From the IMG/VR virus record IMGVR_UViG_2740892235_000015, positions 1 to 10,289 of that record: a stretch of 10,289 nucleotides of DNA, one strand, 5' to 3'. Both the position numbers and the translations under genes were made by a program. A model generated the notes under the pieces. It was not told the DNA's origin, searched no databases, and was given only the letters and a program-made list of their open reading frames with translations. The DNA comes from a virus. Taxonomy: Duplodnaviria > Heunggongvirae > Uroviricota > Caudoviricetes. Each line of letters begins with the position of its first letter. The stretch's first letter is position 1. Below, piece by piece: positions 1-10,289 of this stretch.

Positions 1-1242
1 ATGGCGAGAAAAACACCCCCATTAACCACAGTACAGATCAAAGCAGCCAGACCAGCAGAAAAGGAATACACCCTACAGGACGGCGGAGGGCTTTTTCTCC
101 TGATCAAACCGTCCGGATCAAAACTCTGGAGATTTTCCTACTACCGACCATCGGACAAAAAAAGAATATTGCTGAGTTTTGGATCGCTTGATGATGTTTC
201 CCTGGCTGATGCCAGAAAACGCCGTAGCGAGTACAGGGCGTTAATTCGTGCCGGAACTGACCCGCAGGACCACGAGAGGCAAAAAAGAGAGACAGAGGCC
301 CGAAGACAAGGGAACACGTTCGAAAATGTGGCAACAGCATGGTACCAGGTGAAAATCAGCCAGAATCTGGCCCCCAATACGATTAAAGACATCTGGCGAT
401 CGCTGGAAAAATATGTATTCCCGTTCATCGGCAACACGCCAATAGACACCCTGACCGCTCGCAGGTTCGTTGAGGTGCTTACCCCCATCAAGGAACGTGG
501 CAACCTGGAAACGCTCAAGCGAGTTTTACAGCGTATAAATGAGGTAATGGATTACGCCGCCAATAGTGGGATGATTGATGCCAATCCGGCTATGAATGTG
601 CGTAAGGCGTTCCCCTCCCCTGTAAAAAAACATATGCCAACAATCCGCCCCGAACAGCTGCCGGAGCTTATGCAGGCTTTATCAGTATCGGCAACAGAAC
701 GGCAGACCAGATTACTGATTGAATGGCAGTTACTGACCGTAACCCGTCCCGTTGAAGCATCGTCGGCACGCTGGGAAGAAATCGACATGGAAGCGCAACG
801 CTGGACCATACCCGCCGGACGCATGAAGATGCGCCGCGACCACGTTATCCCGCTTTGTGACCAGGCTATGGCAGTGCTGGAGGCTATGAAACCAATCAGC
901 CACCACCGCGATTATGTTTTCCCGAGTCTGAAAGACCCACAGCAGCCGATGAACAGCCAGACCGCTAACGCAGCATTACGACGCATGGGATTCGCTGGCG
1001 TGCTGGTGTCTCATGGATTACGCGCCATATTCAGCACAGCAGCGAACGAAGAAGGCTTTGAGCCGGACGTAATAGAGGCCGCACTTGCCCACGTCGACAC
1101 CAACGAAGTCAGACGGGCATACAACCGGAGCAACTACATAGAAAAACGCATCGTGCTTATGCGCTGGTGGGGCGAATTTGTCGAGGCTGCGGCGACGGGC
1201 GTAACCCTCGCCAGTGGTAAAAGGGGTATCCGAGCCGTTTAG
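1..1242 (+). CDS. int: Tyrosine recombinase, P4/CP4-57-type phage integrase
   Basis: 413-aa ORF. C-terminal catalytic signature of tyrosine recombinases (SHGLRAIFSTAANE ... EVRRAYNRSNY with terminal Tyr) and an N-terminal arm-binding-like region. Followed by an alpA-like gene as in P4-like islands. The window starts exactly at its ATG, so the att site would lie upstream, outside the window. Confidence 0.93.
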   Translation: MARKTPPLTTVQIKAARPAEKEYTLQDGGGLFLLIKPSGSKLWRFSYYRPSDKKRILLSFGSLDDVSLADARKRRSEYRALIRAGTDPQDHERQKRETEARRQGNTFENVATAWYQVKISQNLAPNTIKDIWRSLEKYVFPFIGNTPIDTLTARRFVEVLTPIKERGNLETLKRVLQRINEVMDYAANSGMIDANPAMNVRKAFPSPVKKHMPTIRPEQLPELMQALSVSATERQTRLLIEWQLLTVTRPVEASSARWEEIDMEAQRWTIPAGRMKMRRDHVIPLCDQAMAVLEAMKPISHHRDYVFPSLKDPQQPMNSQTANAALRRMGFAGVLVSHGLRAIFSTAANEEGFEPDVIEAALAHVDTNEVRRAYNRSNYIEKRIVLMRWWGEFVEAAATGVTLASGKRGIRAV

Positions 1243-1340
1243 CTGTACAGAAAACCAGTAAAAACTACGAAAACCATTTAAAACCGTCGTATAATTGCAT
1301 CACATTTAACGACGAGGCCTTGAAAAATGAAACTGTTAAG

Positions 1341-1571
1341 ATGCAAACAAATTTCAGATGCAATTGCGACGGGCTGCAACTGGCCCTGATGGTTCAGCAT
1401 GAATTTTGGTCAACCTACGATCCGGAGGACAGAACGACGGCCCCATCAAAAAAACAGGTAGTAGATTTCCTGGTATCCCGTGGGGCTTCCAGAAATCTGG
1501 CTGTAAGTATTGATAAGGTTGTACGTCCGGCATCCATGAAGACCGGAGGCAGGCCAAAAAAATGGCGGTAA
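1341..1571 (+). CDS. Hypothetical small protein (76 aa from ATG 1341; alternative TTG start at 1320)
   Basis: ORF ends 10 nt before a canonical rho-independent terminator. A perfect -10 hexamer TATAAT lies at 1290-1295, with a poor -35. The overlapping minus-strand ORF 1354..1620 has a less protein-like composition. No recognisable domain. Confidence 0.3.
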   Translation: MQTNFRCNCDGLQLALMVQHEFWSTYDPEDRTTAPSKKQVVDFLVSRGASRNLAVSIDKVVRPASMKTGGRPKKWR

Positions 1572-1581
1572 CAATCCTGAA

Positions 1582-1605
1582 AGCGGCAGAAATGCCGCTT
1601 TTTTT
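1582..1605 (+). terminator. Rho-independent terminator
   Basis: Stem AGCGGCA / TGCCGCT (7 bp) with loop GAAA, followed by a run of 7 T. Confidence 0.6.
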
Positions 1606-1632
1606 ATAAATCCCTTTCAAATCATCAATATA

Positions 1633-1720
1633 AAAAACGGTGTATACCGTTTAAAAACGGTGAGTACTGTTTTTCCCTGCATCCGATGATTTACCGTATT
1701 TCTCACCGGAATACACCGGA
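1633..1720 (+). promoter_or_regulatory. Repeat-rich region upstream of alpA (candidate promoter/operator or recombinase-binding sites)
   Basis: Direct repeat AAAAACGGTG at 1633-1642 and 1653-1662 (20-bp spacing). Inverted repeat ACGGT-gtat-ACCGT at 1637-1650. Direct repeat ACCGGA at 1705-1710 and 1715-1720. GAGG SD at 1726-1729, 9 nt before the alpA ATG. Confidence 0.3.
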
Positions 1721-1738
1721 TTAATGAGGTAAATCACG

Positions 1739-1945
1739 ATGGAAGCAATCAAAAAAGTCATCTTTCGCCAGGAAGTAAAAAAACTTATCCACATTAAGGC
1801 AGACAGCACGCTGCAAAGCATGATCAACGCCGGAGAATTCCCGCAGGGTTTTCGTGTCGGTTTGCGCCGTCGCGGATGGTATGAGGAAGACGTAATCGCA
1901 TGGATGAAAGAACGAGAACAAGAAGCGCGCGGAACGACCGCTTAA
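1739..1945 (+). CDS. alpA: AlpA-family helix-turn-helix regulator (prophage excision/transcription activator-like)
   Basis: 68 aa. Sequence pattern typical of the AlpA family (KKLIHIKADSTLQSMINAGEFPQGFRVGLRRRGWYEEDVIAWMKE). Position immediately downstream of int. GAGG SD. Confidence 0.8.
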   Translation: MEAIKKVIFRQEVKKLIHIKADSTLQSMINAGEFPQGFRVGLRRRGWYEEDVIAWMKEREQEARGTTA

Positions 1946-2066
1946 CATATATAGGGCAAATGATGAACATAAAAAAAGCGGCCCCGAAATGGAGCCACCT
2001 TTCTGAACAATTAACCCGCTGCGCCGTATGTGTCAACAATCATAAGCCTGGGCATGATAACCGCGA

Positions 2067-2270
2067 TCAGGCTGGTGGGCAATTATCTTTCTTGTTGGGG
2101 CCGTATTGTGCTGCCATTTTCATCCGTTCAGAACGTGAATATTTTTTTAGAAACTCATCAAGGACAAAAGCGCATGGTGCGAATCTTTCTGATTCATGCT
2201 CGAGCGCCATATTTTCGTGCTCTCTGTTCGTTTTTTGCGATGGTGTATCGGTTGATTCTTTATTGGTCAT
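2067..2270 (-). CDS. Hypothetical small protein (67 aa), second gene of RHH operon 1
   Basis: Minus-strand ORF starting MTNKESTD. Its ATG and first three codons (ATGACCAA) lie inside the conserved R1 element directly downstream of the RHH gene. SD is weak (AGG). No recognisable domain. Confidence 0.45.
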   Translation of the reverse strand: MTNKESTDTPSQKTNREHENMALEHESERFAPCAFVLDEFLKKYSRSERMKMAAQYGPNKKDNCPPA

Positions 2271-2323
2271 TGTGTGTACCTGTAAAGCAATGCGCCGTAG
2301 TACCTCACGCCACGGCGCTGATG
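2263..2323 (-). repeat. R1 copy a: conserved intercistronic element with stem-loop
   Basis: 45-nt core at 2279-2323 is identical to 3460-3504. Contains a hairpin, stem GCGCCGT / ACGGCGC with a 13-nt loop. TTGGTCAT at 2263-2270 (the start-codon region of the downstream minus gene) is also shared, with an 8-nt variable spacer between. Confidence 0.85.
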
Positions 2324-2327
2324 TTTT

Positions 2328-2501
2328 TTATCCTTTGGGTTCAATACCGCGTTGCTGTAATTCTTTTCGGAGTACTCGCTTGATCCAGGTGGCTAAAGAA
2401 GTGTCACCGTCTGCTTTCGCTGCCTCTTCAAGTTGTGCTCTGAATTCTTCTGGTAGCCGCATTTGGTATGGAGGCGATCGCTTTTCCAATGGTGTTGACA
2501 T
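2328..2501 (-). CDS. Ribbon-helix-helix (Arc/MetJ/CopG-type) DNA-binding protein, 57 aa
   Basis: Hand translation of the minus strand gives MSTPLEKRSPPYQMRLPEEFRAQLEEAAKADGDTSLATWIKRVLRKELQQRGIEPKG. The MRLPEEF...L...A......S...WI...L pattern is a classic RHH strand-helix-helix. AAGGG SD 9-10 nt upstream. Not in the supplied ORF track, presumably because it is below the length cutoff. Confidence 0.7.
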   Translation of the reverse strand: MSTPLEKRSPPYQMRLPEEFRAQLEEAAKADGDTSLATWIKRVLRKELQQRGIEPKG

Positions 2502-2541
2502 GGTAATTACCCTTAATTACTATAGTTACATGGTAATTACC
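2498..2541. promoter_or_regulatory. Candidate operator: two copies of the perfect palindrome GGTAATTACC
   Basis: ACATGGTAATTACC at 2498-2511 and 2528-2541, 30 bp centre to centre, with a TAATTAC half-site between them (2514-2520). Lies in the divergent region abutting the RHH start codon and upstream of the rightward leader. Confidence 0.5.
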
Positions 2542-2569
2542 ATTGTACTTACCGTTATACAAAAAACAA

Positions 2570-2611
2570 CGCCCCGCAGTGGTGGCTCACATACGGGGCG
2601 TCTAACCAAAC
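2570..2611 (+). repeat. R2 copy a: leader stem-loop plus conserved TCTAACCAA tail
   Basis: CGCCCCG-ca-GTG-gtggct-CAC-ata-CGGGGCG (2570-2600) followed by TCTAACCAAAC (2601-2611), then GAGG SD and ATG at 2632. Same architecture as 3822-3860. Confidence 0.6.
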
Positions 2612-2631
2612 CATTAATTGAGGTAACGATT

Positions 2632-2718
2632 ATGGCTATAAAAGAGCATAGCTTACTCTTTATACACNNNNNNNNNNTTCGCTGGCGGTTATGCAACTTA
2701 GTGCTGATATGGCGCTGA
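2632..2718 (+). pseudogene. Probable degenerate or interrupted Ash/Icd-like paralog
   Basis: Starts MAIKEHSLLFIH, paralleling the MVAVNHIPHLVH start of the 3881 gene, with the same upstream leader element. Interrupted after 12 codons by the N run. Reads IWR then stop after the gap where the paralog has VWRFLAL. Frame across the gap is unknowable. Confidence 0.3.
2668..2677. other. Run of 10 N (unknown sequence, possible scaffold gap or masked bases)
   Basis: Directly visible in the sequence. Confidence 1.
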
Positions 2719-2767
2719 ATGAGGCCAAAGCTATCCTGATTGCTGATTGTGAAAATGGGGGGGGGTT

Positions 2768-3001
2768 ATGCGTGATGATCGTTTTTATTCCCTGAAACAA
2801 GAATTTTCCGGCGTATCTGATGATGCGGCTGATGCGCTTTCGTCAATGCCAGAACTTATTAGAGCGGCTTTTTTCTTACTTTCCACGAAAGAATATAAAT
2901 CAACGGGACTTGATGTACTGAATATCGCCGCCGATTATGCGGAATATGTGGCAGAGGCGCGTTACAGAAGAAAATTTCCTGAGGATGTAAGCCATGCGTG
3001 A
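2768..3001 (+). CDS. Hypothetical small protein (77 aa)
   Basis: ORF MRDDRFYSLKQEF... with helical, protein-like composition. A G9 homopolymer immediately upstream serves as the SD region. The stop overlaps the start of the next ORF (ATGCGTGA), suggesting translational coupling. The opposite-strand ORF 2859..3116 looks like antisense noise. Confidence 0.5.
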   Translation: MRDDRFYSLKQEFSGVSDDAADALSSMPELIRAAFFLLSTKEYKSTGLDVLNIAADYAEYVAEARYRRKFPEDVSHA

Positions 3002-3210
3002 TATTTACCACGAAACAACAGAACGCGTATTTCTTGCACTTTCTCACAGTGAAAACATGCTGGAAATATTGCGCATATGGCTTGAAACACTTGGCGACAA
3101 TGAACGCGACAAACAAAAATCAAGAATTGTCACGGCATTAATAACGCTTCTTGAGCCTGTAATAAATGAGTTGCAGGAAATAGAGACATTGCACGACAGA
3201 TATAACGAAC
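2994..3210 (+). CDS. Hypothetical small acidic protein (at least 72 aa; 3' end lost in N run)
   Basis: ORF MRDIYHETTERVFLALSHSENMLEILRIWLETLGDNERDKQK..., with GAGGA SD at 2981-2985. Net acidic and helical. Runs into the N run at 3211, so the true stop is undefined. The 292-aa extension in the ORF track is antisense to real minus-strand genes and is not credible. Confidence 0.45.
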
Positions 3211-3220
3211 NNNNNNNNNN
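3211..3220. other. Run of 10 N (unknown sequence, possible scaffold gap or masked bases)
   Basis: Directly visible in the sequence. Lies between convergent genes. Confidence 1.
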
Positions 3221-3223
3221 TAC

Positions 3224-3451
3224 TCATCCTGGCGGGCGATTCTTACGGGACTTTAGCCGCCGTGGGCAGCTTGCTAAAAATGCCTCCAACGCGAATAGTC
3301 CAGGTTTCATTTCTATCGGTATTAGTTGGATATTCAGAGGATTAGCCAGTTCGGCTTCAAGGCGAGCACAGGTTTCTAACTGCCTTTGCCGAATGATTTC
3401 ATCTTCTTGCGTATGCGTGTCTTGTATTGGTGATAGTGTGTTGTTGGTCAT
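3224..3451 (-). CDS. Hypothetical small protein (75 aa), second gene of RHH operon 2
   Basis: Minus-strand ORF starting MTNNTLSP. Start region ATGACCAA is shared with the 2067..2270 gene and embedded in the R1 element. The stop codon is reached before the N run, so the ORF is complete as shown. No recognisable domain. Confidence 0.45.
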   Translation of the reverse strand: MTNNTLSPIQDTHTQEDEIIRQRQLETCARLEAELANPLNIQLIPIEMKPGLFALEAFLASCPRRLKSRKNRPPG

Positions 3452-3504
3452 GGTACTGCCCTGTAAAGCAATGCGCCGTAGTACCTCACGCCACGGCGCT
3501 GATG
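3444..3504 (-). repeat. R1 copy b: conserved intercistronic element with stem-loop
   Basis: 45-nt core at 3460-3504 is identical to 2279-2323. TTGGTCAT at 3444-3451 is also shared. Sits between the stop of RHH gene 2 and the start of the downstream small gene. Confidence 0.85.
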
Positions 3505-3508
3505 GTGA

Positions 3509-3688
3509 TTATTCTGATTCTTTGGCCTTGCGACGCTGGCGGTATTCAACTTCCCGCTTTAATGCAGCTGTAACAAACTGCCCTGTACTTTCGCCGGGCA
3601 TTTTTACCGCCTCAACATTGTTCATAACTTCATGTGGAACCCTTGCCGCAACTGTTTGTGATTTTGCGTTTACTGCTTTTGTCGCCAT
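3509..3688 (-). CDS. Probable ribbon-helix-helix DNA-binding protein, 59 aa
   Basis: From ATG at 3688: MATKAVNAKSQTVAARVPHEVMNNVEAVKMPGESTGQFVTAALKREVEYRQRRKAKESE. RHH-like strand (TVAARVPHEV) followed by two short helices. GAGGGG SD 8 nt upstream. The ORF-track start at 3697 is a GTG. Confidence 0.6.
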   Translation of the reverse strand: MATKAVNAKSQTVAARVPHEVMNNVEAVKMPGESTGQFVTAALKREVEYRQRRKAKESE

Positions 3689-3717
3689 GTTGAGCACCCC
3701 TCATAAAAAACAAATGC

Positions 3718-3814
3718 AGTATGCAGGAAAAAAAATAAGTGTTCAACACTTGACGTGTTTAACACCTCGATTTAAATTGGTGTTCAACACCTTATTTAGG
3801 CAAGGTGTTGAAAC
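3718..3814. promoter_or_regulatory. Divergent promoter/operator region of module 2
   Basis: Rightward sigma70-like promoter: -35 TTGACG (3750-3755), 17-nt spacer, -10 TAAATT (3773-3778). Leftward: -35 TTGAAC (complement of 3741-3746), 17-nt spacer, -10 CATACT (complement of 3718-3723). Inverted-repeat motif GTGTT-N-AACAC at 3739-3749, 3755-3765 and 3780-3790, plus a half-site variant at 3805-3814, overlapping both promoters. Confidence 0.5.
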
Positions 3815-3820
3815 GACGAA

Positions 3821-3860
3821 ACCCCGCACTGTAGGAGCAGTAACGGGGCTTCTAACCAAC
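3821..3860 (+). repeat. R2 copy b: leader stem-loop plus conserved TCTAACCAAC tail
   Basis: CCCCG-c-ACTG-taggag-CAGT-aa-CGGGG (3822-3848) followed by TCTAACCAAC (3851-3860), then AGGAG SD and ATG at 3881. Both stems differ in sequence from copy a but keep the same architecture. Confidence 0.6.
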
Positions 3861-3880
3861 AACGTAAACTAGGAGCCGTT

Positions 3881-4444
3881 ATGGTTGCTGTAAATCATAT
3901 ACCACACCTTGTACACACACAAACTGCCTTTGTGTGGCGTTTTCTGGCCCTGAATATCGGAGAAAAAAACCAGTTGATCGCCAGTGTCGAAAATAGCTAT
4001 GATTCCCGCGCACCTCATAAAACGGGTGTCGGGATTAGCCTCCTGAAAACAACTGAAGCGCACAGCACGCGCCCCGCGTGTTTTTTTGTGCCGCATAGTC
4101 ACACCTTATCAATGGTGGGCTGTACGGGGGCGGAGCAATCCGCGCCGGTTTCTTCAGTGTCCGGTAAGGCTAACCCTGTACAGTCCGCCACCAGCGAAAT
4201 TAGCCTTTTGCGTGGCGGTTATCTTAACCACACTGAGGAGGCTGCCAACATGGCTACTACCCCTGCCCTCGTACATTCTCAAACAGCCTTTATCTGGCGC
4301 TTTATTGCCTTTGGCGCGTCAGACCATCAAATCATCCACGTAACCGCCTGGACGGAACGCGAAGCGCGTAACCGTTGCCCGTACGGTTGTGTTGCTGTGT
4401 TCGCCGCCCGTATTCGTCAGGGGGCGCACCATGCACAATTATGA
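3881..4444 (+). CDS. Tandem-repeat protein, possibly Ash/Icd-like (P4-associated family)
   Basis: 187 aa with an internal duplication: LVHTQTAFVWRFLAL near the N-terminus and LVHSQTAFIWRFIAF around residue 130. AGGAG SD at 3871-3875. An in-frame internal ATG at 4250 is preceded by GAGGAGG (4235-4241). Family assignment is from memory of Icd-like sequences (FxWRF and NRC motifs) and is unverified. Confidence 0.55.
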   Translation: MVAVNHIPHLVHTQTAFVWRFLALNIGEKNQLIASVENSYDSRAPHKTGVGISLLKTTEAHSTRPACFFVPHSHTLSMVGCTGAEQSAPVSSVSGKANPVQSATSEISLLRGGYLNHTEEAANMATTPALVHSQTAFIWRFIAFGASDHQIIHVTAWTEREARNRCPYGCVAVFAARIRQGAHHAQL

Positions 4445-4631
4445 AGCGCACTTACCTGTAGTTCTTAATGTGCCGTCAGATTATACGGGACGCGTTTTGA
4501 TATTTCTCGATAAAGGGAAAGTGAAATCACAATGCCGCCTTAGAAATAATGAGGTTGTTGGTTCTCTGGCTTTTTTTTCTGAGGCCTGTATTCGTGCCGG
4601 AATAAAACTTGAATCACTGACAGGAAAATAA
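4431..4631 (+). CDS. Hypothetical small protein (66 aa)
   Basis: ATG at 4431 preceded by a GGGGG SD. Overlaps the 3' end of the upstream gene by 14 nt. No recognisable domain. Confidence 0.4.
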   Translation: MHNYEAHLPVVLNVPSDYTGRVLIFLDKGKVKSQCRLRNNEVVGSLAFFSEACIRAGIKLESLTGK

Positions 4632-4636
4632 AAACC

Positions 4637-4936
4637 ATGAAAAAGAAAAATTCTGGCTTTACTGCCAGTGACTTCTCTCGGCCTGAAATCCGCCCCGGCG
4701 ATATTTTCCGTGATAACTACGGCGGTACGGTAACGATTAAAGGCGTGGCAGAACGGCGCATCACCTACCGTCGTGAAGGCTACGAATATGATTGCGTGAT
4801 GCCTGTTTATCAGTTCCGGCGTGATTTTTCTCTGGTACAGACCGCGCCGCATAACGTGCCCACCTGCAGGGAGAAAGCACGCGCCAATATTCAGAAGATG
4901 AAAAACATGATTAACGGATTCAGGGGCAAGAAATGA
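4637..4936 (+). CDS. Hypothetical protein (99 aa)
   Basis: ORF with AGGAAA SD-like sequence. Its stop overlaps the start of the replication ATPase gene (ATGA), suggesting co-translation within the replication operon. Confidence 0.5.
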   Translation: MKKKNSGFTASDFSRPEIRPGDIFRDNYGGTVTIKGVAERRITYRREGYEYDCVMPVYQFRRDFSLVQTAPHNVPTCREKARANIQKMKNMINGFRGKK

Positions 4937-6330
4937 AAAGCGCACCGAACTTAAAAAAACAGCCTTACGACAAGATGACCGAAGTCATCATTTTTGCGGG
5001 TAGTGATGCGTGGGCACATGCGAAACAGTGGCAGGAACAGGACGGGCGACTGGCTGGCGATAATGTGCCTCCCATTGTGCTGGCTGATGATCAACTGGAT
5101 GAACTGGCAGACCTGAGAATCATCGACGAGGGGCGCTATTGTGTCCGGCTGTACAAGGCAGGCCACATCAGGCCATCAAATATTAATGCCATTGCGCACA
5201 AGCTGGCGGCGGCGGGCGTAACTGATGCGAATTATTACCCCGAAGGGATACACAGCCAGAAGCGGGAGAACTGGCGCGAATATCTGGAACGGGAGCGGGG
5301 GAAAAAGCCAGGGGAAGAACACCACCAGCGAAAAACCACGCTACCGATGAGCGTTGGATCTGCCGGATACGACACGCAATTAGATTACGTGGTAAAGGGG
5401 ATTATTCCGGCATCGTCGCTATGCAGCATATACGGGGCAAGCGGTTCCTATAAATCATTCCTTGCGGGTTCGTGGGCGTGTCACGTTTCCACGGGCCGCC
5501 AGTGGGGAGGCCGCAGGGTGGCGCATGGCGCTGTTCTCTATGTGGTTGGTGAAGGCGGTATCGGCGTTCCGCGTCGTGTAAAAGCCTGGGAGGTTGTGCA
5601 CGGTGAGCAGGTGAAAAATCTGTATCTGGTAAACCGTCCAGTTTTTCCGGCTGTCCCGCTTGATGTTGATGAACTGGTTATCGCTGCCCGTCAGGTGGAG
5701 CGGGAAACGGGTAAACCTGTACGCATGATTATTCTTGATACTCTGGCGCGTTGCTTTGGTGGCAATGATGAAAATGATTCCCGTGATATGGGGGCGTTTA
5801 TCCGTGGGTGTGACGAGCTTAAACGGCGCACAGGGGCCACGGTGCTGGTGGTTCACCATTCCGGCAAGGATGAGACGAAAGGCGCGCGCGGTTCCAGTGC
5901 ATTTCGTGCATCACTGGATGCTGAATACCGGATACGCAGGGAGGACGCAGGAAGCGAAGCGCTGGTTATCTCATGCACCAAAATGAAGGACGCGGAGGAA
6001 CTCAAAGAAGCCGCATATGACTTACGCGTGGTGGAGCTTTTTACCGACGCTGACGGGGAGTTAATCACGTCGCTGGTGGTGGTGGATAAGCCGCGCCCTC
6101 CCGTTGAACTGGAGCGCATCGAGGAGGCAGGCAACAAGACGGAAAACCATACCGCGCTATGGGGATGCATACGTTCACGCACACAGCACGGCGACAAGTG
6201 CACGATCCCGCTGTTACGTGACGATATGAAAAAGCTGGGGTATGACACAAAACACCTTAAACGATGGTTAGCCAAACTGGAAAAAGACGACGTGATCTAC
6301 ATTGACGGTGATGATGTAGGACCACTGTAA
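4933..6330 (+). CDS. Replication ATPase/helicase, RecA-fold (RepA/AAA_25-like) with uncharacterised N-terminal domain
   Basis: 465 aa. Walker A GASGSYKS (aa 168-175), Walker B-like RMIILDT, and a VVHHSGKDETKG motif typical of RepA-like RecA-fold helicase-ATPases. The iteron array starts immediately after the stop codon. Confidence 0.88.
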   Translation: MKSAPNLKKQPYDKMTEVIIFAGSDAWAHAKQWQEQDGRLAGDNVPPIVLADDQLDELADLRIIDEGRYCVRLYKAGHIRPSNINAIAHKLAAAGVTDANYYPEGIHSQKRENWREYLERERGKKPGEEHHQRKTTLPMSVGSAGYDTQLDYVVKGIIPASSLCSIYGASGSYKSFLAGSWACHVSTGRQWGGRRVAHGAVLYVVGEGGIGVPRRVKAWEVVHGEQVKNLYLVNRPVFPAVPLDVDELVIAARQVERETGKPVRMIILDTLARCFGGNDENDSRDMGAFIRGCDELKRRTGATVLVVHHSGKDETKGARGSSAFRASLDAEYRIRREDAGSEALVISCTKMKDAEELKEAAYDLRVVELFTDADGELITSLVVVDKPRPPVELERIEEAGNKTENHTALWGCIRSRTQHGDKCTIPLLRDDMKKLGYDTKHLKRWLAKLEKDDVIYIDGDDVGPL

Positions 6331-6532
6331 AAAGTGGGCATTAAAAGTGGGAAAGGTGGGCAATTTAACGGAATTTTAACAAAATTACCCACTTTCCCAC
6401 GTGTATATATCCCAAAAAGTGGGCACTAAAAAAATACCTATGAAACAAGATGATATAAATCCCAAATTTCCCACGTTGGACGAAGTGGGAAAACGTAAAA
6501 AGTGGGCGAAAAAAGTGGGTAGAGGTGGGCAA
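6331..6532. repeat. Iteron array, candidate origin of replication
   Basis: About ten copies of (A)AAGTGGG(C/A)A or GGTGGGCAA in both orientations: direct at 6331-6340, 6343-6354, 6354-6363, 6416-6425, 6483-6493, 6497-6508, 6511-6520, 6522-6532; inverted at 6388-6400 and 6467-6474. An AT-rich stretch lies between them (6365-6412). Confidence 0.6.
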
Positions 6533-6784
6533 ATGACTCAAAAACACAGAGACAGAACAGAGCCAAAATATAAAGCGTTAGACATGACAGAGCACGCCTT
6601 AAAGGTGGCAATCAGAACGATAGACCGCCACGCGGGGGAAGGATACGCGAAGGAACATCCCGACCTGATAAGCGCATTCATGACCACAGCAGCAGCAAAC
6701 TTTGCCACGCTGACAGAACGGGAGATTGCCGAAGCGGAACAGGTAACAACAATCAACGTTAAAACCGGAGAGGTGGAATCATGA
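6533..6784 (+). CDS. Hypothetical protein (83 aa)
   Basis: ATG at 6533 with GAGG SD at 6522-6525. Start chosen downstream of the iterons rather than the ORF-track start at 6401. Stop overlaps the SSB start (ATGA). Confidence 0.5.
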   Translation: MTQKHRDRTEPKYKALDMTEHALKVAIRTIDRHAGEGYAKEHPDLISAFMTTAAANFATLTEREIAEAEQVTTINVKTGEVES

Positions 6785-7203
6785 CAGCACAGATAGCCGC
6801 TTACGGGCGGCTGGTGGCTGACCCACAGTTAAAGACCACCAGCAAGGGTACACAAATGGCGATGGCGAGTATGGCTGTCCCCCTGCCGTGCAGCCAGGCC
6901 GATGACGGAACGGCGACGATGTGGTTATCCGTCCTGGCGTTTGGCAGACAGGCCGACGCACTGGCAAAACACCACAAAGGCGAACTGGTGAGCGTGGCGG
7001 GTAACATGCAGGTGAGCCAGTGGACAGGCCAGAACGGCGAAACGCGGCAGGGCTGGCAGGTTATCGCTGACAGCGTAATCAGTGCCAGAACGGCGCGACC
7101 AGGTGGTAAAAAAGGCCAGCAGGGCCAGGCTACTGACGCACTGAACAGGGCAAAACAACAGGCGGGTAACGATGATCCGTACGGGGATAACATACCGTTT
7201 TAA
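6781..7203 (+). CDS. ssb: Single-stranded DNA-binding protein (SSB-like)
   Basis: 140 aa. OB-fold-like core resembling SSB (AFGRQA...KGELV.V.G.MQ...WT.Q.GE.R.GW). Gly/Gln-rich linker and a C-terminal acidic tail ending DNIPF, like the DDDIPF tail of bacterial SSB. Confidence 0.75.
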   Translation: MTAQIAAYGRLVADPQLKTTSKGTQMAMASMAVPLPCSQADDGTATMWLSVLAFGRQADALAKHHKGELVSVAGNMQVSQWTGQNGETRQGWQVIADSVISARTARPGGKKGQQGQATDALNRAKQQAGNDDPYGDNIPF

Positions 7204-7219
7204 GCAACGAGTGACAGAA

Positions 7220-7241
7220 GCCGGAGCAATCCGGCTTTTTT
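7220..7241 (+). terminator. Rho-independent terminator
   Basis: Stem GCCGGA / TCCGGC with loop GCAA, followed by T6. Lies 17 nt after the SSB stop. Confidence 0.7.
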
Positions 7242-7248
7242 GTAGGTA

Positions 7249-7430
7249 CTCCTGGTGGGGGTGGCCTGTCCACGGGGCGGGCGGCGCGGAAAAAAGCGCA
7301 TTTTTTGATTTTTATGGCACCATCACCACCACTATAAGTTATTGATATATTGAAGAATAAAAATTTTTAGTGTCGAATCAGGTTGTTTTTTGTTCATCAC
7401 TGGAGCGTTCCCGAAAGCATTTACAAAAAA
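7249..7430 (+). repeat. R3 copy a: duplicated intergenic control module
   Basis: GC-rich block at 7249-7312 nearly identical to 9786-9850. Shared TATAAGT (7333-7339), AGGTTGTTTTTTGTTC (7380-7395) and TTTACAAAAAA (7420-7430), with the same spacings as in copy b. Confidence 0.8.
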
Positions 7431-7669
7431 ACAGGCGCAAAAAAAGCGCCCCCGATTGCTGTTACCGGAGGCGCTTTTACACGACAAAGGAGTTTTTATC
7501 GCCAGGATGACGAGTCTTAATATTGCTTCAATAGCAAAAATGCGTCAATGGCTTTGCCTCTCTGAGAATAATCAGAAAAATCATAATCTGATTTTATGGT
7601 AGAAAATAATTTATCTATTACTTTTATCGATCAATAATGATGCCCGTTAATCAAAACGGAGGCGGATTT

Positions 7670-7864
7670 ATGCCAGAGAACAACACCAGAAAGCCGGATA
7701 AAAGTGCCACGGTACACATAGACGCCGGAACTATGGAGAAGATCGAACGCTATCAGCAGTTCATCAAAGATAATCACCCGGGTATGCCAGTGCCCACGAA
7801 AGGACAAATCACACGCAGCGCGGTTGAATACTGGTACAGGGCAACGTTAGGAGCCTGGCTATGA
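7670..7864 (+). CDS. Hypothetical small protein (64 aa)
   Basis: ATG at 7670 with GGAGG SD at 7658-7662. Stop overlaps the start of the protease/capsid gene (ATGA). No recognisable domain. Confidence 0.5.
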   Translation: MPENNTRKPDKSATVHIDAGTMEKIERYQQFIKDNHPGMPVPTKGQITRSAVEYWYRATLGAWL

Positions 7865-9750
7865 AAACATGGTTTTCCATTAAGGCTATGGCAGATGTTG
7901 TACATGTGCGCATTTATGACGAGATCGGCGGGTACGGTGTAAAAGCATCGGCACTTACTGACGAGATCAACGCGTGTGGTAATGCGTCTGAAATCCATCT
8001 TCGCATCCATTCACCTGGTGGCGACATCTTTGAAGGGCTGGCTATCTATAACGCTCTGAAAAATCATCCGGCAAAAAAAATCGTACACATTGAAGGCATG
8101 GCGGCTTCTATGGCGTCGTTTATTGCCATGTGTGGAGATCACATCGTTATGCCTGAAAACGCGATGATGATGATACATGCCCCCCGTGGTGTTACTGCCG
8201 GAGTGTCGGGCGACGTTCGCCGCTTTGCTGATCTGATGGACAAGCTGGGCGACACGATGGCAGAAACCTATGCCGGAAGAACGGGCAGGAGCAAACAGGA
8301 GATCACCTCAATGATGGAGGCGGAAACCTGGATGGATGGCAATGAGTGTAAGGCTAACGGCTTCGCAGATGAGGTTATACCCGCGATTACAGCAATGGCC
8401 CGAATTGAATCAAAACGAATCGGAGATTTTTCAAATATGCCGGAAAAAATTAAAAGCATGATCAGCCAGAAAACTGGCAGTGGCGAACAGGAACGACTTA
8501 ACGGAATCCGTGAATTGTTTGGCACCTTCAACGGAAGATATAACGACCTGGCTATAAGTTGTCTTGCGGATTCAGAATGTAGCGTTGAGAATGCACGCGA
8601 ACGCCTTTTACTCGCTATGGGTAAAGAATCAACGCCAACAAACAAAACCACCCCCGCAAATCTTTACTACGCGTACACGGATAACGGCAATATAACTGGC
8701 GATGCCATGCGTCAGGGGCTTAATGCGCGTCTTGGTCACGAACGGGCCGAACGCGGTAATCCTTACGCCATGATGAGTCTTTTCGATATGGCACAGGCAT
8801 CATTAACCCATCGTGGTATAAGCACGGGCAGCTACAGCACACGCTCGCAGATAGTAAACGCGGCATTCACCCACAGCAGCAGCGATTTTACAGATATCCT
8901 TGCTGGTGGCGCTGAAAAATCAGTGCTTGCAGGCTGGGAGCACAGCGGCGAAACATTCCGCCAGTGGACGAAAAAAGGTTCCCTTTCAAACTTCCGGGAA
9001 GCCCGCCGCGTTGGTATGAATGGCTTCTCAACGTTAAACAAAGTGCCGGAAGGGGCAGAATATAAATACATCACCACCAGCGATCGCGGTGAACCCATCG
9101 CGCTGGCTACTTACGGGAATATTTTCAGCATTACCCGCCAGGCGATAATCAATGATGACCTTGATCAGTTATCAACGGTGCCAATGGCTATGGGCCGTGC
9201 AGCATCAAGAACGGTGGGAAATCTGGTTAATCTGGTGCTTACAGGCAACGTAAAACTTTCTGACGGAATAACGCTGTTTGACAAAAAACACAGCAACCTG
9301 ATTGAAGCAGGACTGACAACACCGGGACTTAGTGCAGCACGTCACCTGATGCGCACACAGAAGGACAAAAATGGCGAAGTGCTGAATATTGCGCCTAAAT
9401 TCCTTTTAGTTCCGGCAGCACTGGAAGATCGCGCGTTGCAGATGATTAACTCAACCGCACCTTTCGGGGCTGATAAAAACAGCGGGATCTTTAACCCGTA
9501 CCACAAGCTACTTGATATCATCGTCGATCCCCGCCTTGATGATATCAGCGAAAAACAATGGTACATGCTTTCCGCACAGGGAACGGACACAATCGAGGTG
9601 GCTTATCTTGATGGCAATGACGAGCCTTACCTTGAACAGCAGGAAGGTTTTATCGTTGACGGCGTGGCCTGGAAAGTCCGTATTGATGCAGGTGTGGCAG
9701 CTCTGGATTATCGCGGTATGGTCAAATCAGGCGGTACCGATTCACTATGA
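7861..9750 (+). CDS. Prohead protease (ClpP-like, S14) fused to HK97-like major capsid protein
   Basis: 629 aa. The N-terminal ~190 aa match the ClpP pattern (IHSPGGDIFEGLAIYNALK ... GMAASMASFIAMCGD ... MMIHAPRGV, compare ClpP INSPGG, AASMGAF, MIHQP). The C-terminal ~300 aa resemble the HK97-fold major capsid family. A linker or scaffold-like region lies between. AGGAG SD. Confidence 0.88.
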   Translation: MKTWFSIKAMADVVHVRIYDEIGGYGVKASALTDEINACGNASEIHLRIHSPGGDIFEGLAIYNALKNHPAKKIVHIEGMAASMASFIAMCGDHIVMPENAMMMIHAPRGVTAGVSGDVRRFADLMDKLGDTMAETYAGRTGRSKQEITSMMEAETWMDGNECKANGFADEVIPAITAMARIESKRIGDFSNMPEKIKSMISQKTGSGEQERLNGIRELFGTFNGRYNDLAISCLADSECSVENARERLLLAMGKESTPTNKTTPANLYYAYTDNGNITGDAMRQGLNARLGHERAERGNPYAMMSLFDMAQASLTHRGISTGSYSTRSQIVNAAFTHSSSDFTDILAGGAEKSVLAGWEHSGETFRQWTKKGSLSNFREARRVGMNGFSTLNKVPEGAEYKYITTSDRGEPIALATYGNIFSITRQAIINDDLDQLSTVPMAMGRAASRTVGNLVNLVLTGNVKLSDGITLFDKKHSNLIEAGLTTPGLSAARHLMRTQKDKNGEVLNIAPKFLLVPAALEDRALQMINSTAPFGADKNSGIFNPYHKLLDIIVDPRLDDISEKQWYMLSAQGTDTIEVAYLDGNDEPYLEQQEGFIVDGVAWKVRIDAGVAALDYRGMVKSGGTDSL

Positions 9751-9756
9751 CAACAA

Positions 9757-9778
9757 GGCGGCACCAGCCGCCTTTTTT
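9757..9778 (+). terminator. Rho-independent terminator
   Basis: Stem GGCGGC / GCCGCC with loop ACCA, followed by T6. Lies 7 nt after the capsid gene stop. Confidence 0.7.
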
Positions 9779-9785
9779 GCGGGTC

Positions 9786-9969
9786 CTCCTGGTGGGGTGG
9801 GCCTGAACACGGGGCGGGCGGCGCGGAAAAAAGCGCATTTTTTTGATTTTATCGTCATCATCATCATGTGTATAAGTGATTGTTTTTAATTATTTTGATG
9901 TGAAAAAGATGATGAAGAAGGTTGTTTTTTGTTCGACATCTTTTAGCGTGACAGATTCTTTACAAAAAA
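9786..9969 (+). repeat. R3 copy b: duplicated intergenic control module
   Basis: GC-rich block at 9786-9850 nearly identical to 7249-7312. Shared TATAAGT (9871-9877), AGGTTGTTTTTTGTTC (9919-9934) and TTTACAAAAAA (9959-9969). Confidence 0.8.
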
Positions 9970-10007
9970 TCTGAGCTTGTTTTCTTCACCAGCGCGATGG
10001 GGGCACA

Positions 10008-10289
10008 ATGACAGAAGCCGAAATACTGGGATTAATCCGTCGCGTTGCCGGAATCAGCCAGCAGGCTGACGAACAGGCCACGCAGCCGGACAGCGTGACC
10101 GCCGAAAATTATGCGCGTGTGGTTGCTGAGGTGATGCGCCGTGATGGTATTGAGCTTAACGGCGTGGATATGCGCAACATACGAACCAGAGTCCTTGAGT
10201 TGCTGGCATACCGTCGCCGCGTGGAGATGTATCGGGAGAAGGAGAAAATCACGTATCACTGGAAGAAGCCGGAGCGGTTACGGCGGTAA
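10008..10289 (+). CDS. Hypothetical protein (93 aa); its position after the capsid gene suggests a head-completion or connector role, unverified
   Basis: ORF with GGGGG SD. First gene after the second R3 module. The window ends at its stop codon. No motif recognised with confidence. Confidence 0.5.
   Translation: MTEAEILGLIRRVAGISQQADEQATQPDSVTAENYARVVAEVMRRDGIELNGVDMRNIRTRVLELLAYRRRVEMYREKEKITYHWKKPERLRR

Follow-up and report, generated by a model that had tools for sequence, protein, structure and literature searches.

What are two small, similar operons doing side by side in a phage satellite, and are they addiction modules or genetic switches? The DNA that raises this question is a 10,289-nucleotide stretch (hereafter the window, meaning that whole stretch) covering positions 1 to 10,289 of IMG/VR virus record IMGVR_UViG_2740892235_000015. 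Within it lie two minus-strand operons, here called modules A and B, each of which pairs a gene for a ribbon-helix-helix (RHH) protein with a small downstream open reading frame (ORF). An earlier description made from the letters alone (the sequence-only reading) had proposed that they are paralogous, tandem modules of either toxin–antitoxin or repressor–effector type. All four ORFs are present at the coordinates listed in the table, with sizes of 57 and 67 amino acids (aa) in module A and 59 and 75 aa in module B, and RefSeq annotates the same four genes in Escherichia coli 88-3493; an alternative GTG start three codons upstream would lengthen RHH-B to 62 aa. Our best explanation is a duplicated, heteroimmune RHH/operator switch to which a cassette encoding an RNA hairpin and a small protein with a FALE motif has been added. 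We give this explanation a probability of roughly 70%, jointly with the view that module A is a heteroimmune switch left by another island.

The RHH genes are preceded by a control-region scaffold that is common to related islands and comprises a leader hairpin (D3), a GTCAAG block, and a TATACT-like −10 element for the RHH gene. Read on the other strand, the GTCAAG block is TTGAC, the −35 element of a rightward promoter. Set within this constant scaffold are 2–5 copies of a 9–11 bp motif. For module B the motif is GTGTTRAACAC, with three sites in 52 bp; across the window it gives 6 strand-matches versus 0.42 expected, and no shuffle among 200 gave as many. These sites bracket the −35 element and cover the −10 element of the rightward promoter and, by our reading of the sequence, probably also cover the leftward −35 element. 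For module A, a promoter scan identified a rightward sigma-70-like promoter, TTGACA-17-TACTAT, at 2495–2523 with a 10/12 match, and the GGTAATTACC palindromes overlap both this promoter and the RHH-A start codon. We infer that the RHH proteins bind these repeated sites at their own promoters. Because the operator copies overlap the rightward promoters as well, repression of the rightward operon is the most likely outcome.

Comparison across islands reveals that the motif is replaced at every position together with the β-strand of the RHH protein, which is the DNA-reading part of the fold, whereas the promoter scaffold does not change. In a cross-hit matrix of 20 control regions, hits occur strictly within diagonal blocks, and four of these join independent loci. 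The β-strand QLTTVRVP(L/H) goes with GAAACACAC; QS(L/V)TARI goes with TCTTACAC, in one 101-aa and one 59-aa protein; QALKARVPH goes with GTGGCCCAC, in strain CFT073 and one further locus; and (KS)KKLEARVPH goes with GTCAGCCAC or GTGTCAGCCAC, in E. coli, Proteus, and Xenorhabdus. Such an in-step exchange of all motif copies and the β-strand on a conserved scaffold would be the pattern expected of immunity specificity. The sequence-only reading had mentioned a repressor module or an immunity function, and this part of it is supported by the position of each RHH gene at a divergent promoter pair under its own operator array, whose motif varies with the β-strand across islands and genera.

Both proteins display the hallmarks of the RHH fold, a β-α-α arrangement with a G-x-S/T turn before helix B, and the predicted model of RHH-B matches RHH structures. 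The core comprises residues 9–52 in RHH-A and 11–50 in RHH-B, with a remaining basic tail of 5–9 residues. RHH-A matches an Arc-like repressor family of the PHROG collection (4.9e-7) and, more weakly than the Pfam cut-off demands, Pfam Arc (0.0079). RHH-B belongs to the YlcI/YnfO family (NCBIfam NF041551; 59.7 bits against a cut-off of 30), whereas RHH-A, at 20.1 bits, falls under that cut-off and is not a member. The two proteins align with each other in register, weakly (BLASTP E 0.02; hhalign E 1.3e-3, probability 19%), and the family profiles of the two small proteins also match; to this extent they may be called paralogous, but BLASTP aligned nothing between the small proteins themselves. 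The YlcI/YnfO family is that of genes from the DLP12 and Qin prophages of E. coli K-12, for which no function was found in the literature searched, and a 2026 survey mentions it only as a "prophage-associated protein" in phage-inducible chromosomal islands of the capsid-forming kind (cf-PICIs) (PMC13612085). Among 50,697 phage records, none matches RHH-B. Four loci encode a longer YlcI/YnfO-type protein (101–106 aa), in which helix B and the basic tail are separated by a conserved extension of ~45 aa, AEGSGENPLVSSLDALAQVEKIGVKAAEEIGQLVTVAREEL, that may be an oligomerization domain.

Module A retains its own leader hairpin D3 and a truncated icd-like start, and for this reason we consider it a second, heteroimmune switch. 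The same icd remnant is found in a related locus, where it reads MAIKEHSLLFIHTQTPRKRNNPFH followed by a stop. Rightward of the remnant lies a 533-bp piece that is 100% identical to part of what lies between icd and DUF4222 in a different E. coli island's rightward operon, and it is oriented as expected downstream of promoter A. Two exact 10-N runs, presumably scaffold gaps, flank the piece (2668–2677 and 3211–3220), and both adjoin repeated sequence, D3 and the icd remnant in one case and the 3′ end of the small-B gene in the other. Within the piece, a run of nine G residues (2757–2765, plus strand) directly precedes the ATG at 2768, and such tracts can slip.

The gaps also raise an alternative explanation, that the tandem layout in the window is an artifact of assembly in which the D1 (described below) and D3 repeats misled the scaffolder and the 533-bp piece came from another island in the same genome. 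We consider this unlikely, though it is the strongest of the rivals. The 10-N gaps on both sides of the piece speak for it, as do the identical copy in another island's rightward operon and the lack, among the collection's complete E. coli genomes, of one that covers more than 90% of positions 1900–4000. Against it, the piece is oriented as a remnant of a rightward operon should be downstream of promoter A and the truncated icd start, and gapless tandems of RHH/small-gene modules are present in complete genomes as well as in many viral contigs. Because such gapless tandems exist, and because 14 of 102 loci carry tandem modules with at least 7 different RHH pairings, the duplication itself is real and recurrent. 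The tandem arrangement described in the sequence-only reading accordingly holds for complete genomes, where the modules are directly adjacent, but their apparent spacing in the window is provisional, with two 10-N gaps lying between them.

Profile searches with the small proteins gave no significant match in Pfam, NCBIfam, PADLOC, or the Protein Data Bank and none to a toxin or defense family, in agreement with the earlier remark that they resemble no recognized family; the only hit is that of small-A to PHROG 21027, which has no function assigned, at 3e-12. The profiles of the two small-protein families match each other over a 23-column motif (hhalign 93.5%, E 2.3e-7), [RK]FALExFLxKY(P)RR, of which ~15 residues are all that is conserved, the N- and C-termini being highly variable. 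The FALE protein has no match in the 50,697 phage records, and its family is tiny, with 8–10 clusters in a search of 5.8 billion proteins and 16 representatives among 1.84 billion 50%-identity representatives. An AlphaFold2 model of small-B has a confident helix at residues 15–36, a short helix at 54–61 over the FALE motif, and disorder elsewhere, with a predicted template-modeling score (pTM) of 0.32; the small protein is predicted to be hydrophilic and largely disordered. The ratio of nonsynonymous to synonymous differences (pN/pS) is ~0.5 over the small ORFs and 0.27–0.36 over the motif, and indels are in frame. These values, together with a frame that is intact in every copy examined, indicate that the small ORFs are genes and that they evolve fast.

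What is nearly constant is the leader. A 75-nt repeat (D1), 85% identical between the modules, spans the RHH stop codon, a hairpin, CAUUGCUUUACAGG, and the first codons of the small gene, and it is exact over the 27-nt hairpin and CAUUGCUUUACAGG, which probably holds the Shine–Dalgarno (SD) sequence of the small gene. The MTN start on which the sequence-only reading had remarked is indeed present in both small proteins, but it comes from this DNA repeat and not from conservation at the protein level. The fold energy of the small-A leader is −21.8 kcal/mol, with z scores of −3.0 and −1.6 for the two leaders. Among the fetched loci, every complete hairpin element (119 of 119) has a FALE-type ORF within 25 nt, and all 109 strict-motif ORFs have a hairpin element upstream, including those at loci found via the protein rather than the DNA pattern. 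The hairpin/small-gene cassette stands behind different RHH types, occurs twice in tandem in two loci (L101 and L104), and is represented by two small genes in an island that lacks any RHH gene (L101/L102). The stem shows substitutions (C-G to U-G to U-A, G-C to G-U, and U-A to U-G) that preserve base pairs in the sense RNA alone, and we read the element as one that probably acts on translation, stability, or processing of the small-gene mRNA. Because the loop reads GUGAGUAA in EcCICFT073, its GAGG is not invariant. An 18-mer scan of genome contigs gave matches outside the Enterobacteria that are mostly chance, and the sole relevant locus is in Shigella.

Several other roles for this element were considered and rejected. 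As an intrinsic terminator it lacks a conserved U tract after the stem, and as an antisense terminator or sar-like RNA it lacks a detectable promoter and has a U run only in Arc-type contexts. A mini-ORF lying upstream (UUG...UGA, which overlaps the AUG) was dropped because L101-2 and L105 do not conserve it. A λ N/nut-like reading, with an arginine-rich N-terminus, an upstream hairpin, and a boxA-like UGCUUUACA, was set aside because the arginine-rich stretch is confined to A-type proteins.

It is also conceivable that the RHH genes alone are functional, the small ORFs being decaying or incidental and the intergenic block a recombination junction or a transcription attenuator. The small size and variable ends of the FALE family, the overall pN/pS, and the low-confidence model all fit this idea, and in other genera the RHH gene suffices alone. 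Decay is nonetheless improbable given the intact frame in all 119 complete elements, the conserved motif with its lower pN/pS and in-frame indels, and the profile match between two diverged subfamilies; moreover, the cassettes stay intact when duplicated or apart from an RHH gene.

Still less probable is an arrangement like that of P22 immI or pMV158 copG-repB, in which a cis-antisense RNA ending at the intergenic hairpin would control the translation start of the small gene. In its favor, a terminator-like UGAUGUUUUUUAUCC comes after the hairpin on the plus strand of module A, the conserved block reaches across both the SD and the start codon of the small gene, and the first third of the small ORFs shows little synonymous divergence. 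The promoter scan found no plus-strand promoter-like site in the 5′ part of either small ORF, however, the U run is missing in module B and most YlcI-type contexts, the stem substitutions favor the sense RNA as described above, and the small protein does not resemble Ant or Rep proteins.

The weakest rival is the classic type II toxin–antitoxin or addiction module raised in the sequence-only reading. Known RHH antitoxins such as CcdA, ParD, and RelB have ~70–85 aa. The idea that the RHH protein is an autoregulating antitoxin and the small protein a toxin that stabilizes the island shares with CcdAB, ParDE, RelBE, and TacAT the gene order and a predicted autoregulatory RHH, but it is least probable of all, since the RHH proteins align without a C-terminal toxin-binding extension, are encoded monocistronically with a terminator next in Xenorhabdus, Proteus, and Serratia islands, and assort freely with small-protein types in a pairing table, without the obligate pairing or partner co-variation of those systems, while small genes occur without an RHH gene in L101/L102 and encode a hydrophilic protein, predicted to be largely disordered, that matches no toxin family.

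Returning to the duplicated heteroimmune switch, a number of points weigh against it. The leftward promoters are weak matches that the promoter scan did not flag. The operator/β-strand blocks could partly reflect co-inheritance of linked DNA, and the operator cores used for the matrix were picked by eye from the same regions, so that only its off-diagonal zeros and cross-locus blocks are informative. Covariation in the small-gene hairpin is weak, with 89.9% of cells paired and one compensatory pair (C-G to U-A), which is not above shuffles. Where the 533-bp piece belongs, and only that, hinges on an N-gapped scaffold. Whether Gram-negative PICIs have a global repressor is "unclear" according to the paper that founded their study, which describes AlpA as an activator (PMC6092414). 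Finally, a preprint states that cf-PICIs give packaged particles even without an inducing phage (10.1101/2025.02.11.637232), and tight repression by an RHH protein is therefore not assured.

With these points in mind, we propose that each bicistron would be the leftward arm of a regulatory switch of the satellite. An RHH protein of Arc or CopG size would bind the 2–5 copies of its type-specific motif, which overlap its own promoter and the rightward promoter placed back-to-back with it. The latter would drive the icd-like gene, the C4 and isrK RNAs, a helicase or primase, and the capsid genes, and the RHH protein would most likely repress this replication and packaging operon as well as regulate itself. 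Module B would be the working switch of this island. Module A may have been captured by recombination as a unit of small gene, RHH gene, operators, rightward promoter, leader hairpin, and truncated icd start, and RHH-A would then target A-type operators, whether in its own module or on an incoming A-type island. The small gene would be a separate cassette in which a nearly invariant leader, the 9-bp hairpin and SD, precedes a fast-evolving protein with a variable N-terminal helix and the conserved FALExFLxKY(P)RR motif. That protein may be an accessory factor co-expressed with the repressor rather than a toxin neutralized by it; most likely, although this is a guess, it is a modulator or a factor aimed at the helper, with the hairpin setting its dose post-transcriptionally, and the helper interference suggested earlier is a possible role.

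How does this arrangement compare with known systems? The P22 immI region encodes Arc (53 aa) and Mnt, very small RHH repressors whose operators overlap divergent promoters. The modules resemble it in their tiny RHH proteins, of which RHH-A falls in an Arc-like PHROG family, in candidate operators at divergent promoters, and in a second gene downstream in the same transcript. They differ in that the downstream gene encodes a FALE-motif protein of 57–92 aa instead of the 300-aa antirepressor Ant, with no match of the small proteins to Ant, Bro, or KilA; in that the promoter scan found no plus-strand promoter-like site opposite the intercistronic region, unlike arc-ant-sar; and in that the element is a satellite and not a phage. 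The Omega repressor of pSM19035 (omega-epsilon-zeta), also an RHH protein, likewise uses repeat arrays, but here there is no zeta-like toxin or epsilon-like antitoxin and the repeats are 9–11 bp spaced at ~16–25 bp. In role, an analog would be Stl/Rpr of Gram-positive PICIs, the Staphylococcus aureus pathogenicity islands (SaPIs), in which a repressor gene of many specificity types is divergent from the excision, replication, and packaging operon (PMC6092414). Stl is a larger helix-turn-helix protein without sequence relation to the RHH proteins, and it is encoded in the same direction as int; in the window, by contrast, the RHH operon is divergent from the icd–helicase operon and converges on alpA and int, which are on the opposite strand. 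A full-text literature search that combined satellites or PICIs with ribbon-helix-helix returned nothing relevant.

Coordinates of the modules, their control regions, and neighboring features (positions refer to the window unless an accession is given)
Feature	Position	Strand	Description
RHH-A	2328-2501	-	57 aa, Arc-like RHH
Small-A	2067-2270	-	67 aa, MTNKEST..., FALE-motif protein (...RFAPCAFVLDEFLKKYSR...)
RHH-B	3509-3688	-	59 aa from ATG, YlcI/YnfO-family RHH
Small-B	3224-3451	-	75 aa, MTNNTLS..., FALE-motif protein (...LFALEAFLASCPRRLKSRKNRPPG)
Control region A	2495-2556		GGTAATTACC palindromes at 2500-2511 and 2532-2543; weaker copies to 2556
Control region B	3718-3812		GTGTTRAACAC at 3739-3749, 3755-3765, and 3780-3790; half-site near 3806-3812
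Rightward promoter-like site, module B	3750-3755 (-35), 3773-3778 (-10)		TTGACG and TAAATT; promoter scan
Putative leftward promoter, module B	3741-3746 (-35), 3718-3723 (-10)		TTGAAC and CATACT; read from the sequence
Small-A 5′ leader	2271-2327	-	Hairpin 2292-2318 (GCGCCGUGG-CGUGAGGUA-CUACGGCGC), CAUUGCUUUACAGG, AUG at 2270
Small-B 5′ leader	3452-3508	-	Hairpin 3473-3499, identical to 2292-2318, then CAUUGCUUUACAGG
Leader hairpin D3-A	2561-2609		Between operators and first rightward gene; conserved in all related islands
Leader hairpin D3-B	3811-3859		Upstream of icd-like start at 3881
Truncated icd-like start	2632-2667	+	MAIKEHSLLFIH...; cut by 10-N gap 2668-2677
533-bp piece between 10-N gaps	2678-3210	+	ORFs 2768-3001 (PHROG 2512/24341) and 2994-3210+ (PHROG 2196)
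Putative terminator-like hairpin	1971-1998	-	GGCUCC-AUUU-GGGGCC and U run; read from the sequence, unflagged by scan
Integrase (int)	1-1242	+	
AlpA-like gene (alpA)	1739-1945	+	
isrK RNA	4010-4086		Rfam, 61.8 bits
C4 antisense RNA	4108-4195		Rfam, 75.4 bits
Icd-like domain, then DUF4222 gene		+	Precede helicase
RepA-type helicase	4933-6330	+	
Single-stranded DNA-binding protein (SSB)	6781-7203	+	
Prohead protease/major capsid fusion	7861-9750	+	ClpP-like protease part
EcCICFT073 module, RHH gene	NC_004431.1 1380473-1380652		GTGGCCCAC operators
EcCICFT073 module, small gene	NC_004431.1 1380242-1380415		

The wider context is consistent with a mobile element of E. coli, whose chromosomes match the window at 95–100% identity. 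On account of its gene content (see table) and of the tRNA-Pro that adjoins the island in related genomes, we classify the window as a capsid-forming phage satellite of P4/PICI type. Related islands carry a single RHH/small-gene module between alpA and a divergent operon that leads from icd or ash to a primase or helicase. The putative hairpin at 1971–1998 would mark the end of the leftward operon, facing the 3′ end of alpA. In many related islands, an antirepressor-type gene lies on the alpA/int strand directly after alpA, facing the small gene; in four loci this gene, of the Rha, AntA/AntB, or Bro-N type, stands between alpA and the small gene. In the window this gene is absent, and just a 120-bp spacer containing a bidirectional, terminator-like hairpin takes its place. 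A preprint on cf-PICIs notes that the gene after alpA is variable and that its function is not known (10.1101/2025.02.11.637232).

On the rightward side, operon B continues beyond D3-B through isrK, C4, and icd, on to the helicase. Islands from E. coli to Xenorhabdus and Proteus conserve the D3 sequence, TTGGTTAGA[CA]GCCCCG...CGGGGC. The more stable fold of D3 is that of the minus strand (−23.8 and −26.2 kcal/mol; z −3.1 and −4.5), and a U run follows it there, so that D3 could equally terminate leftward antisense transcription. Searches of Rfam identified no known family at the D1 or D3 hairpin at E ≤ 1. A single ORF (3881–4444, 187 aa) spans a truncated icd-like N-terminus (from 3881), isrK, C4, and a complete Icd-like domain (aa 137–180), and the location of isrK and C4 between a truncated and a complete icd suggests that recombination has left a second scar in the rightward leader. 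The first 30 nt of the isrK-like RNA (4010–4039) complement the RHH-B mRNA at its SD region (3689–3725, minus strand), UUUUAUGAGGGGUGC versus GCGCACCUCAUAAAA; the duplex has an energy of −22.5 kcal/mol and a z score of −2.9 against mononucleotide shuffles, but it was one of 12 comparisons and may be chance. If the pairing is real, an RNA from the rightward leader would antagonize the leftward repressor. Elsewhere, neither C4 nor isrK was convincingly complementary to the hairpin leaders or to the start regions of the RHH genes, this being the sole suggestive case.

The prototype PICI EcCICFT073 (NC_004431.1 1377930–1388654) carries exactly one RHH/small-gene module. Its two genes bear locus tags, C_RS30800 and C_RS30120, that fall outside the numerical run of their neighbors, and they look like later annotation additions. 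The published work consulted on EcCICFT073 describes no repressor for it. The finding could matter to satellite biology because it can be put to a direct test in this island. We entertain a wider proposition, possible though doubtful, in which YlcI/YnfO-type and Arc-like RHH proteins are the global repressors of Gram-negative PICIs and cf-PICIs, the β-strand/operator pairs define heteroimmunity groups, stacked switches confer immunity to or cross-control of rival satellites, and the hairpin–FALE cassette encodes a post-transcriptionally controlled factor that links the switch to the helper phage, as a sensor or by interference. If the RHH protein only autoregulates, it would be an ordinary small regulator beside an orphan gene. 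If instead it is the repressor of the switch, the induction of these widespread satellites would be directly testable in the existing genetic system of EcCICFT073, the β-strand/operator pairs would be a ready-made scheme for immunity typing, and stacked switches such as those in the window would point to competition between satellites.

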